DNA of 13,338 nt, taken from UHGV virus genome UHGV-1739656, one strand, 5' to 3'. The notes under the pieces are model-generated. The model was given only the letters and a program-made list of their open reading frames with translations, was not told the DNA's origin and did not search any database. This stretch comes from a virus. The first letter of the stretch is position 1; each line of letters opens with the position of its first letter. Made by a program: the position numbers and the translations under genes. Below are positions 6,264 through 7,524 of this stretch, in pieces.

Positions 6264-6277
6264 TGTGACATGTCACG
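6264..6277. repeat. 14-bp palindromic motif TGTGACATGTCACG, copy 2
   Basis: Identical to 3999-4012. Lies 74 bp downstream of the terminase large-subunit stop and 4 bp beyond the stop of the minus-strand ORF. Confidence 0.8.
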
Positions 6278-6280
6278 GTG

Positions 6281-6613
6281 TTATTTCGGTAGATTGTGTT
6301 TGGCATTCGACTCGTCTATCACGTAACGCATTGCAGTTCGACCGAGATTACCAGGATCTTCATGCAGACTCACTCGTGCCTTTAGGAGCACACATTCAGC
6401 CTTGACATAGTTTGCTGGAATTATTCCTACCTCGGCATTTTTAAATGCCTCCTTCACCGCCTCACCGTTGTACTGACCGCCAAGCAACTCTGTACATGTC
6501 AGGTTGTTATGGATAATTGCAAGGAGATCTTTAATCTCTTCACGCAGGTTTACAATCGCCATCGCGGCATTGATAGCTGCGGCATAGCGCTCAGCTGCAG
6601 TCTTCTCTTTCAT
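6281..6613 (-). CDS. Orphan hypothetical protein (110 aa), antisense to the structural operon; candidate moron
   Basis: Minus-strand ORF with likely ATG at plus 6611-6613, six nt after AAGGTG (the track ORF extends to a GTG at 6620-6622). The alpha-helical, Ala/Glu/Lys/Asn-rich composition looks protein-like. No recognisable family. Confidence 0.45.
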   Translation of the reverse strand: MKEKTAAERYAAAINAAMAIVNLREEIKDLLAIIHNNLTCTELLGGQYNGEAVKEAFKNAEVGIIPANYVKAECVLLKARVSLHEDPGNLGRTAMRYVIDESNAKHNLPK

Positions 6614-6624
6614 GATTTTCACCT

Positions 6625-6650
6625 TAAAAAAATGCCCGGACGAACCGGGC
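6625..6650 (-). terminator. Intrinsic terminator or attenuator-like hairpin on the minus strand
   Basis: On the minus strand: GCCCGG-TTCGT-CCGGGC followed by ATTTTTTT, immediately 5' of the RBS of the minus-strand ORF. Confidence 0.6.
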
Positions 6651-6728
6651 GAACTGGAAGCAATGAGTTATGCCTTCCGTGGCTGTACTGGTTTACAGCA
6701 TGAAGTCATCGCAATGGCGTCCTGCTGT

Positions 6729-6770
6729 AAAAAGGGCGGTGATAGTCCTTCAAGGGAAACCATCACCGCC
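6729..6770 (-). terminator. Intrinsic terminator on the minus strand, downstream of the tRNA
   Basis: On the minus strand: 9-bp GC-rich stem GGCGGTGAT / ATCACCGCC with an 18-nt loop, followed by CTTTTTAC. Lies 44 nt 3' of the tRNA CCA end. Confidence 0.55.
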
Positions 6771-6813
6771 AAGCACCTGGAACTTCTGGCATCACGGTCC
6801 TTAGGCGTGATTC

Positions 6814-6890
6814 TGGCGTGGCATGCAGGATTCGAACCTGCGACCAACCGCTTAGAAGGCGGTTGCTCTGTCCAACTGAGCTAATGCCAC
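6814..6890 (-). tRNA. tRNA-Arg (anticodon UCU), complete 77-nt gene with encoded CCA
   Basis: Minus-strand sequence GTGGCAT-TA-GCTC-AGTTGGACA-GAGC-A-ACCGC-CTTCTAA-GCGGT-TGGTC-GCAGG-TTCGAAT-CCTGC-ATGCCAC-G-CCA folds by hand into a perfect cloverleaf (7-bp acceptor, 4-bp D, 5-bp anticodon, 5-bp T stems). Anticodon loop CUUCUAA gives UCU. T-arm is identical to recalled E. coli argU; acceptor and anticodon stems differ. Confidence 0.85.
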
Positions 6891-7317
6891 AACGCTGAGA
6901 GCACTTAGCCTGTTAAGGCGCCACACTTTGTCGCGGCTCCATAAATGCTCTCATCGTTGTACCCTCGTCTCTTCCGAGGCGTCACACCGAATCGCCGGGA
7001 TGGTGAATCCCCGTGCGCGGAATAAAACCGCTCGACTTGCACATTCCGGCTACCTGGTTCGTTTGCCCGAGCAAGGGAGGGTGCCCCTTAAACGTATCCA
7101 GACCGCTATCGGCGCATGTGCCATACGCCGTACTGCTCAAAATAAAAGCTCACTCCACCTGTTCAATTTAACGACAAGCCAGTCAGGTTAGTAACCGGAA
7201 TGAACTCTTTGGTTACCTGAAAGGTAATAATTTGTGCGTTAAATGTCAACTACCTACGATAAATAAATCATATGTGGTTAAATTGGTAATAATTTAATTG
7301 CGTACGGAGTCATTGAT

Positions 7318-7524
7318 ATGTGCATGGGTAGCTCACCATCAGTGCCTGCAACACCAGAAGTTCAGGCAGCACCACAGGAGCAGGATGCCGCCGTTGTTGA
7401 TGCCCGCGACGAAGAAACTCGTCGCCGTCGCGCTGCTGCTGGTCGTAGTTCTACGCTGCTTACCGGTTCTCAGGGCGACACATCAACCGCTAATACCAGC
7501 GGTAAAACGCTGCTTGGTCAGTAA
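7318..7524 (+). CDS. Small hypothetical protein (68 aa), low complexity
   Basis: ATG 7318 is preceded by CGGAGTCATTGA, the same 12-bp initiation context found before the portal ATG. Sits immediately upstream of the portal gene. Confidence 0.4.
   Translation: MCMGSSPSVPATPEVQAAPQEQDAAVVDARDEETRRRRAAAGRSSTLLTGSQGDTSTANTSGKTLLGQ

Follow-up and report, generated by a model that had tools for sequence, protein, structure and literature searches.

The putL and putR sites of phage HK022 are protein-independent processive antiterminators, whose RNA binds the zinc-binding domain of the RNA polymerase beta' subunit and suppresses termination without protein factors. Other systems that bear comparison here are the lambda nut site with its N protein, the argN/argO-type tRNA-Arg genes of Stx phages, which serve the rare codons AGA and AGG, the phage RNAs GOLLD and ROOL, and the phage morons or anti-defence hot spots that carry sponges such as Acb4 and Tad2. 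The put RNA is about 70 nucleotides (nt) long and consists of two stem-loops (PMC9378689). The locus compared with these systems is a minus-strand island between the gene for the terminase large subunit (terL) and those for a gp3-like protein and the portal in virus genome UHGV-1739656, a Uetakevirus (phiV10/epsilon15-like podovirus), of which a stretch of 13,338 nt, the window, was analysed. At a probability of roughly 55%, the island is a self-contained leftward expression cassette in which a promoter, a structured leader RNA, a slot for a tRNA and a pair of terminators precede a swappable cargo gene, here an open reading frame (ORF) of 110 amino acids (aa).

The core of the leader RNA (Table 1) was subject to a covariation test on an alignment of 35 representatives below 93% identity (alignment A4). 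Paired cells amount to 96.7%, against 28-44% when the pairing partners are slid, 13 pairs show compensatory changes, against 1-6 with slid partners, and none of 500 shuffles reaches the observed paired cells, compensatory pairs or covariation score. Compensatory support also comes from helix P0 on the 5' side of the core and from helix P6 on its 3' side, the latter having 7/7 pairs in 92% of 132 sequences, with compensatory variants present. Of the two pseudoknot-type pairings, GCACAU:AUGUGC is invariant and CACC:GGUG covaries to AACC:GGUU. The G-U pairs and the U-tracts fit only the minus strand. Folding of single sequences recovers P0, P1, P5, P6 and the two terminators (z = -3.0 in either of the two stretches folded), and a covariance model of the core (R1) scores 162.6 bits on the window (E=3e-47). 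The 5' domain is optional, being present in some relatives and not in others.

A search of window bases 6000-7700 against Rfam 15 at E<=1 returned only the tRNA and two sub-threshold chance matches, no Rfam family other than tRNA was found in fifteen related loci at gathering thresholds, and nothing credible was found in one relative (L009) at E<=5. No annotated feature underlies the leader among the matches listed for Escherichia coli genomes, and in phage records the core match lies under no feature or under a hypothetical-protein call; RefSeq and GenBank records do not annotate the RNA. The small RNAs AgvB, AsxR and Pas, considered for a CACAAC motif, were rejected; AgvB and AsxR sit at the PR' moron site and have Rfam models, which gave no match. 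The leader appears, as far as the tools used can tell, to be a new, widespread, unannotated RNA with covariation support. An earlier note on the same DNA, made from its letters and ORFs, had taken 6891-7317 for about 400 bases of non-coding DNA, and ORFs there indeed match no protein family save for one marginal PHROG hit; the region is not empty, however, since it holds the structured RNA and a putative promoter.

In an alignment of leaders, hexamers TTGACA and TACCUU are conserved around a spacer of variable sequence and homology with relatives breaks at 7213, from which we infer that 7249-7221 is the island promoter and that transcription would start near 7213. The promoter lies in an AT-rich region (38% GC) facing gp3 that is nearly invariant across genera. 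In it, ATTATTACC occurs at 7285-7293 and again at 7223-7231, a palindrome, TTAAATTATTACCAATTTAA, spans 7278-7297, and a TTACC-N5-GGTAA element overlaps the putative -10 element; the region probably serves as an operator for divergent promoters.

Downstream of the leader, both terminators look like intrinsic terminators by their G+C-rich hairpin and U-tract on the minus strand, compensatory changes preserve the stems, and 4 terminator-like sites were found in 6000-7700 against 1.6 +/- 1.5 in shuffles. Terminator 2 is present in the minimum-free-energy fold, and its stem shows a compensatory change in relatives (GCCCGG/CCGGGC versus GCCCAC/GUGGGC). Its U-tract runs directly into the ribosome-binding site (RBS) of the cargo gene, and the module hairpin-U7-AAGGUG-N5-7-ATG is kept before unrelated cargo genes. 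As the cargo has no evident promoter of its own and a strong terminator directly upstream, its expression must depend on read-through. The earlier note had drawn the same conclusion from the place of terminator 2 directly 5' of the RBS, and the arrangement is conserved whatever the cargo. The note had likened terminator 2 to an attenuator, and it does lie between any upstream promoter and the RBS; however, no conserved short ORF that could encode a leader peptide was seen before it, and no pairing that competes with its stem occurs in the minimum-free-energy or centroid fold, suboptimal structures not having been searched exhaustively.

The cargo gene is exchanged as a unit. Bases 6000-7700 are 98-99% identical over about 80% of their length to phiV10, ZX5, HEMP4 and the O157 typing phages, and blastn alignments with phiV10, typing phage 9 and ZX5 run at 95-99% identity up to 6285 and resume at 6615/6619, with no match between. 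Where the window has the 110-aa ORF, a PF13876 protein is encoded in phiV10 and ZX5. Matches to the slot flanks were found in 504/5426 complete E. coli genomes, most of which have a 'Gp49 family protein' in the slot and some a DUF2829 or other hypothetical protein; the 110-aa ORF is present in 2 of these 504. Among 100 terminator-2 modules from all fetched loci, the gene that follows encodes a PF13876 protein in 46, a member of a 139/140-aa family (phrog_4846) in 25, a member of the 110-aa family (phrog_27507) in 10 and a Tad2-like protein (PF11195) in 3, four slots are essentially empty with an 8-aa ORF, and the remainder hold single or rare proteins, including an HNH-endonuclease-like one. 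A 115-aa repeat protein (phrog_3163) was met only in a survey of 60 slots read from 80 IMG/VR loci with a 99-100% identical portal. A gene annotated DUF2829 occupies the same slot in a Klebsiella phage.

PF13876 is the family of the Acb4 anti-CBASS sponges (PMC11722364). A phage PF13876 allele matches PDB entry 9e4w 'Acb4' at E=0.006, and sister E. coli alleles match PF11195 (Tad2-like) at 1.9e-24. In near-identical prophages (L028-L107), the N- and C-terminal parts of Acb4-family alleles are invariant and the central 30-45 residues or so are hypervariable, in several unrelated versions, which suggests diversifying exchange within a region that may face a ligand or partner. One cargo of 139 aa in a relative (c24) reads as HNH-endonuclease-like from its sequence, and homing-type mobility may contribute to the turnover of alleles. 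The cargo position has the look of a recombination hot spot between conserved DNA, namely a palindrome and the terL terminator on one side and terminator 2 and the RBS on the other.

Like phage morons and anti-defence hot spots, which carry their own promoter and terminator and vary in presence or content, the island would be an independent promoter-to-terminator unit in the late region, set against the flow of transcription; gap length and cargo vary and terminators are present, and the promoter is deduced from its conservation pattern only. Sister alleles belong to the Acb4 and Tad2-like families, as in such hot spots, but the cargo of the window belongs to neither and its slot is preceded by two terminators and by a structured leader that is long and conserved, an arrangement not described, to our knowledge, for anti-defence hot spots. 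This anti-defence swap slot appears to be new as far as the tools used can tell. Anchored by its flanks, it offers a short, testable list of candidates, in that known immune-evasion genes (Acb4 family, Tad2-like) alternate in it with the uncharacterised phrog_27507, phrog_4846 and phrog_3163.

The 110-aa ORF of the window, described in the earlier note as a protein without a recognisable family, is confirmed as an ORF and belongs to phrog_27507, whose profile it matches at E=3.5e-75 over residues 1-110. When 1.84 billion representative proteins were searched by profile, relatives were found in 45 clusters, nearly all of about 100-115 aa, and all 50 aligned relatives match phrog_27507. Wherever homologues (61-98% identity) occur in the Klebsiella and metagenome loci examined and in one Pseudocitrobacter prophage, it is this slot that holds them. 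The ratio of nonsynonymous to synonymous substitutions (dN/dS) is 0.05-0.11, which supplies the coding signal in homologues by which the note had wanted the ORF judged, and the AlphaFold model has a predicted local distance difference test (pLDDT) score of 95.5; the gene is therefore taken to be real. A search with tblastn against 50,697 phage records gave no match to the protein, and it does not match PF11195. In related phages, the ORF is already annotated as a hypothetical protein. From its place in the slot, the protein is most likely a small counter-defence or host-manipulating (host-takeover) protein.

The frame around the cargo is recurrent. An AT-rich region beside gp3, the leader, the tRNA position, an AUCACG hairpin, terminator 1, a spacer, terminator 2 with U7 and AAGGUG, and a cargo gene follow one another in this order in prophages of Klebsiella, Salmonella, Citrobacter, Kluyvera, Scandinavium, Superficieibacter, Pseudocitrobacter, Pseudescherichia, Buttiauxella and 'Candidatus Erwinia dacicola', as well as in E. 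coli. Given that promoter, leader, terminators and RBS are syntenic across enterobacterial genera, the island as a whole was not recently acquired, and its frame is, judging from these alignments, old and shared and not a recent foreign insert. The proposal of the earlier note, that the island is an acquired cassette, therefore stands in so far as it is an accessory cassette in a variable place and falls with regard to recent acquisition of the whole: what relatives carry as core syntenic sequence, a finding that the note had said would speak against it, is the frame, and the ORF alone is a swapped allele.

The leader core extends well beyond the Uetakevirus relatives. A 15-mer from it (GCCGGAATGTGCAAG) retrieved 120 IMG/VR stretches, 77 of the first 80 of which are true homologues, and most of these 77 do not lie beside Uetakevirus terL or portal genes. 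The core was matched in the lambdoid phages mEp460, cdtI, Stx2a_WGPS2, 1720a-02, 2H10 and mEp390 and in the P1-like phages P1, P7, D6, SJ46 and RCS47; SfII matches the mEp460-type region around the core. Full-length copies by model R1 are found in mEp390, mEp460, Stx2a_WGPS2, P7 and SopranoGao. The mEp460-type leader stretch (481 bases including the core) occurs in 2057 of the 5426 E. coli genomes that are complete (about 38%), P1-like plasmids included; 490 of the places matched are on plasmids, and Stx2-converting phages match it too. In Klebsiella phage SopranoGao (Lastavirus, 61.6 kb), which is unrelated to the other carriers of the RNA, the core (L236, 2928-3113, 135.8 bits) directly follows the lysis cassette, close to the end of the genome. 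IMG/VR contig L127 holds two tandem full-length cores on the same strand, at 3983-4163 and 4789-4968, about 800 nt apart and scoring 141.8 and 173 bits.

In mEp460, a cI-like gene with its terminator is followed by a promoter, the core, P6 with a tRNA-like module, a homologue of terminator 1 (GGCGGUACCAG...CUGGUACCGCUCUUUUU) and the first ORF. The promoter is overlapped by two TTGC-N7-GCAA palindromes, which read as putative repressor operators, and the core starts 35-40 nt further on. In Stx2a_WGPS2 and mEp390, the RNA likewise comes directly after a cI-like gene on the same strand, with the downstream genes following. The P7 copy of the core belongs to the ban operon, which is under C1 control, with tRNA-Ile on one side of it and ban on the other. 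Among the lambdoid carriers, the first genes after the RNA are not the same (phrog_204 versus phrog_14171, families without known function), which argues that the RNA has no conserved adjacent protein partner.

These contexts suggest how the cassette might work. The sigma-70 promoter would start a long untranslated leftward RNA consisting of an optional 5' helix, the core of about 190 nt (7141-6946), a helix leading to the tRNA slot, two terminators, the RBS and the cargo gene. The target of the structured core, acting in cis, would be the RNA polymerase that transcribes it or else termination factors, such that transcripts from the island promoter would pass terminators 1 and 2 into the cargo and transcripts from elsewhere would stop. 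The core would then be a functional analogue of HK022 put, unrelated to it. Like put, the RNA of the lambdoid relatives lies just after the repressor-side promoter and before an intrinsic terminator to be passed, and it is a structured RNA with conserved loops and no conserved adjacent partner protein. This early-operon position upstream of terminators is found in mEp460, Stx2a_WGPS2 and mEp390, and in the window terminators 1 and 2 stand before the cargo. A bypass of terminators in cis is the most economical reading because one or two good intrinsic terminators stand before genes that are under selection and have no visible promoter of their own, and it is favoured because the RNA is the sole conserved element between promoter and terminator in three unrelated phage types. 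Antitermination in cis by the core is nevertheless put at slightly short of an even chance. The RNA takes the very place at which lambdoid phages that have no N-type antiterminator annotated require some means of antitermination; should it govern early transcription, it would matter for prophage induction and hence for the biology of toxin phages. More tentative is the full proposal that the core is the first member of a new and very widespread class of terminator-bypass RNAs that act in cis and drive early or accessory operons of lambdoid, P1-like and Uetakevirus phages, here gating an anti-defence slot, and that phrog_27507 is a new anti-defence family with a fold unmatched in PDB and BFVD.

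Several observations weigh against this reading, in both its RNA and its protein part. The analysis shows the anatomy of the island, its conservation and covariation, the exchange of cargo, selection on the coding sequence and the distribution; that the promoter is used, that transcripts read through and are processed, that the RNA antiterminates and that the protein counters defence are steps that we infer, and a consensus promoter scan did not report the site at 7221-7249. Homology to HK022 put was rejected, in that no blastn match reached an E below 0.5 or fell in the core, and the covariance model gave no match at E<=1 in HK022 bases 20000-34000. The core also differs from put in its far larger size, its five or more helices and its two pseudoknot-type pairings, in its single copy per phage record in place of a left/right pair, and in its fusion to a tRNA or tRNA-like module. 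A terminator survey of the non-Uetakevirus contexts, made by a relaxed scan with a 38% background rate, is usable only for a position peak at 350-500 nt. For the protein, the anti-defence role is deduced from its slot position only; no Pfam, NCBIfam, PDB or BFVD match was found by sequence and fold searches, a link to Acb4 was rejected, as PF13876 is not matched and hhalign against the Acb4-family cargo was negative, and distant members of phrog_27507 occur in other contexts. Finally, relatives with an empty slot keep the leader, the tRNA and both terminators, and in P1 and P7 there is no terminator between the core and ban, so that the RNA could be a product in its own right that ends at terminator 1.

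This last possibility is the main rival, and it is considered unlikely without being negligible. A stand-alone non-coding RNA gene would extend from the promoter through the core and the tRNA or tRNA-like module to terminator 1 and would encode a trans-acting RNA of about 330-400 nt (a decoy, scaffold or regulator) that is also a tRNA precursor, with the cargo as a passenger expressed by leaky read-through or from an unrecognised promoter. The persistence of RNA, tRNA and terminators where the slot is empty or holds only the 8-aa ORF and the P1 context favour such a gene, as do the tying together of the stretch from P0 to the tRNA slot by helices P0-P6 and the closing stem, the one locus with two tandem core copies, and the presence of a tRNA within -150 to +900 nt of the core start in 123/221 contexts, for which large phage RNAs such as GOLLD are a parallel. 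Like GOLLD and ROOL, the core RNA is prophage-borne, has many helices and lies beside or encloses tRNAs; unlike them, it has no Rfam match (window E<=1, relative E<=5), is smaller, has another host range and is found in operon leaders. On the other hand, the lambdoid unit lies between the repressor-side promoter and all downstream genes on the same strand, and since it precedes every one of them, transcription must pass terminator 1. The cargo genes, moreover, are under strong purifying selection and have a conserved strong RBS directly after terminator 2, a placement that argues for regular and not accidental read-through.

It is improbable that the core is a large nut-like recognition RNA for a phage protein antiterminator or host Nus factors. 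The RNA does occupy the nutL position in lambdoid phages, at the start of a leftward operon by the repressor gene and before a terminator, as with lambda nut, and in 144/191 contexts the tRNA slot is preceded by UGCUCU, the hexamer with which the rrn boxA sequence begins. The boxA reading was rejected, however, because UGCUCUC is the 3' strand of helix P6 and has compensatory variants, whereas boxA acts single-stranded. No boxB-like element is present, and the core RNA thus lacks the single-stranded boxA and boxB hairpin of a lambda-type nut site. Lambda has its N protein, whereas no antiterminator protein is annotated in the phage records next to the RNA, where the genes belong to families without known function; the first downstream genes differ, and no protein gene is common to the lambdoid, P1-like and Uetakevirus contexts. 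The view of the earlier note, taken here as that of a recently acquired foreign cassette with a classical attenuator at terminator 2 and an upstream 400 bases that are mere spacer and tRNA promoter, could draw on the rarity of the 110-aa allele in E. coli but is largely refuted by the synteny of the frame, an island GC content of 47-57% like that of its surroundings, the lack of a leader peptide or competing pairing, and a covariation that is specific to helices in a stretch common to unrelated phage types, and is very improbable.

The tRNA is complete, as the earlier note had stated, with ARAGORN and Rfam in agreement and the CCA end encoded in the DNA, and it is already annotated in related phages. 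A tRNA-Arg at this slot is known in E. coli phages, Salmonella SPN1S-type phages and one Klebsiella phage; none was found in the loci of genomes other than E. coli that share the frame (prophages of Klebsiella, Salmonella, Citrobacter and others). Relatives without it have multibranched, cloverleaf-like modules that are not tRNAs at the same position, closed by GUUGUGGUG...CACCACAAC, a stem that the tRNA acceptor stem replaces. The window tRNA resembles the argN/argO type in that this tRNA-Arg(UCU) is complete, has its CCA encoded and belongs to a temperate coliphage with AGA-rich early genes, but differs in being embedded in a larger conserved RNA and interchangeable with the cloverleaf-like modules. 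This swapping of a genuine tRNA with tRNA-shaped modules inside one conserved RNA gives a view on how phages recruit and lose tRNA genes.

AGA is used 5.5 times per 1000 codons in the window genes, against about 2 per 1000 in E. coli, and 17/21 AGA codons lie in the genes at 1045-4003 (about 18 per 1000 there), counterparts of early-region genes that are annotated in ZX5 ahead of terS, EaA-like and NinX among them. The codon is almost absent from the terminase and structural genes and wholly absent from the cargo gene. The ordinary explanation is that the tRNA may supplement AGA decoding for the AGA-rich early genes, and a role against tRNA-targeting defences is conceivable. The tRNA was rejected as the remnant of an attachment site, as it is complete and far from any integrase.

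Table 1. Positions of the island elements and neighbouring genes in the window (-, leftward strand;., no strand assigned).
Feature	Position	Strand	Remarks
terS	4044-4718		PF03592
terL homologue	4715-6190		99.6-100% identical to annotated terminase large subunits of phiV10 and ZX5
Weak hairpin terminator after terL	6244-6257	+	Annotated as putative rho-independent terminator in phiV10
Palindrome TGTGACATGTCACG	6264-6277	.	Exact; left edge of exchangeable segment
Cargo ORF, 110 aa (phrog_27507)	6281-6613 (ATG at 6613)	-	ORF call
Cargo slot	6286-6614	.	Segment replaced between phages otherwise 95-99% identical
RBS AAGGUG	6620-6625	-	6 nt before ATG, directly after terminator 2 U-tract
Terminator 2	6626-6650	-	GCCCGGUUCGUCCGGGC; stem 6650..6634 (6 G-C pairs), then A and U7 (6633-6626)
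Spacer between terminators	6651-6728	-	Conserved; hairpins CAGCAG...UGCUG and GGAAG...CUUCC
Terminator 1	6729-6770	-	Stem 6770..6735 (14 pairs), then CUUUUUA
Hairpin AUCACG-N9-CGUGAU	6791-6811	-	Conserved, directly 3' of tRNA slot
tRNA-Arg(UCU)	6814-6890	-	ARAGORN; Rfam tRNA RF00005, 73.3 bits, E=1e-15 (gathering score 29)
Linker	6891-6945	-	Closed by helix P6 (GAGAGCA...UGCUCUC); joins core to tRNA slot
Structured RNA core, about 190 nt	6946-7141	-	Helices P1, P2, P4, P5 and two pseudoknot-type pairings
Optional 5' domain P0	7142-7213	-	10-bp helix around GUCGUUAAAU; in some relatives, not others
Divergent control region	7213-7317	.	AT-rich, between island and gp3/portal, nearly invariant across genera
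Putative sigma-70 promoter of island	7221-7249	-	TTGACA 7249-7244, 17-nt variable spacer, TACCUU 7226-7221
gp3-like gene, 68 aa	7318-7524
Portal	7539-9218		PF12236

The remaining anatomical claims of the earlier note held up. All genes that flank the island lie on the plus strand in annotated relatives, leaving it the only minus-strand unit, both hairpin/T-tract terminators were found by scan on the minus strand, and the palindrome to the left of the island is exact and borders the exchanged DNA. That terminase and portal genes are usually adjacent is true of some relatives, in which terL and gp3/portal almost touch: the gap between terL and gp3 spans 188 base pairs (bp) to 1.58 kb across relatives, the shortest being that of a Providencia prophage. 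The terL homologue itself has no Pfam match. A plus-strand ORF at 6612-6884 (90 aa, phrog_4647), annotated as PhiV10p04 in phiV10 and as a coding sequence in ZX5, was rejected as a gene; it overlaps most of the antisense tRNA-Arg and both terminators and is on that account very probably a propagated mis-annotation.

In relatives from Rahnella and Advenella (L018-L020), the frame of RNA, tRNA and terminators is absent, and 1.3-1.6 kb with other minus-strand ORFs (148-273 aa) lie at the same junction, from which it follows that the terL/gp3 boundary is a general insertion site. Palindrome TGTGACATGTCACG has a second exact copy upstream of terS (3999-4012) and a copy with one mismatch at 9266-9279; counted over both strands, there are 5 matches against 0.12 expected. 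Its 12-bp perfect core, GTGACATGTCAC, stands at both ends of terS-terL in relatives from several genera, the two copies being about 2.2-2.9 kb apart where both fall within the fetched stretch. It looks like a putative binding site of a dimeric protein, either a regulator or a packaging-related factor, and not like a cassette end as such. The weak hairpin after terL has T-rich tails on both strands and is accordingly a plausible shared stop for the convergent transcripts of terL and the cargo gene.

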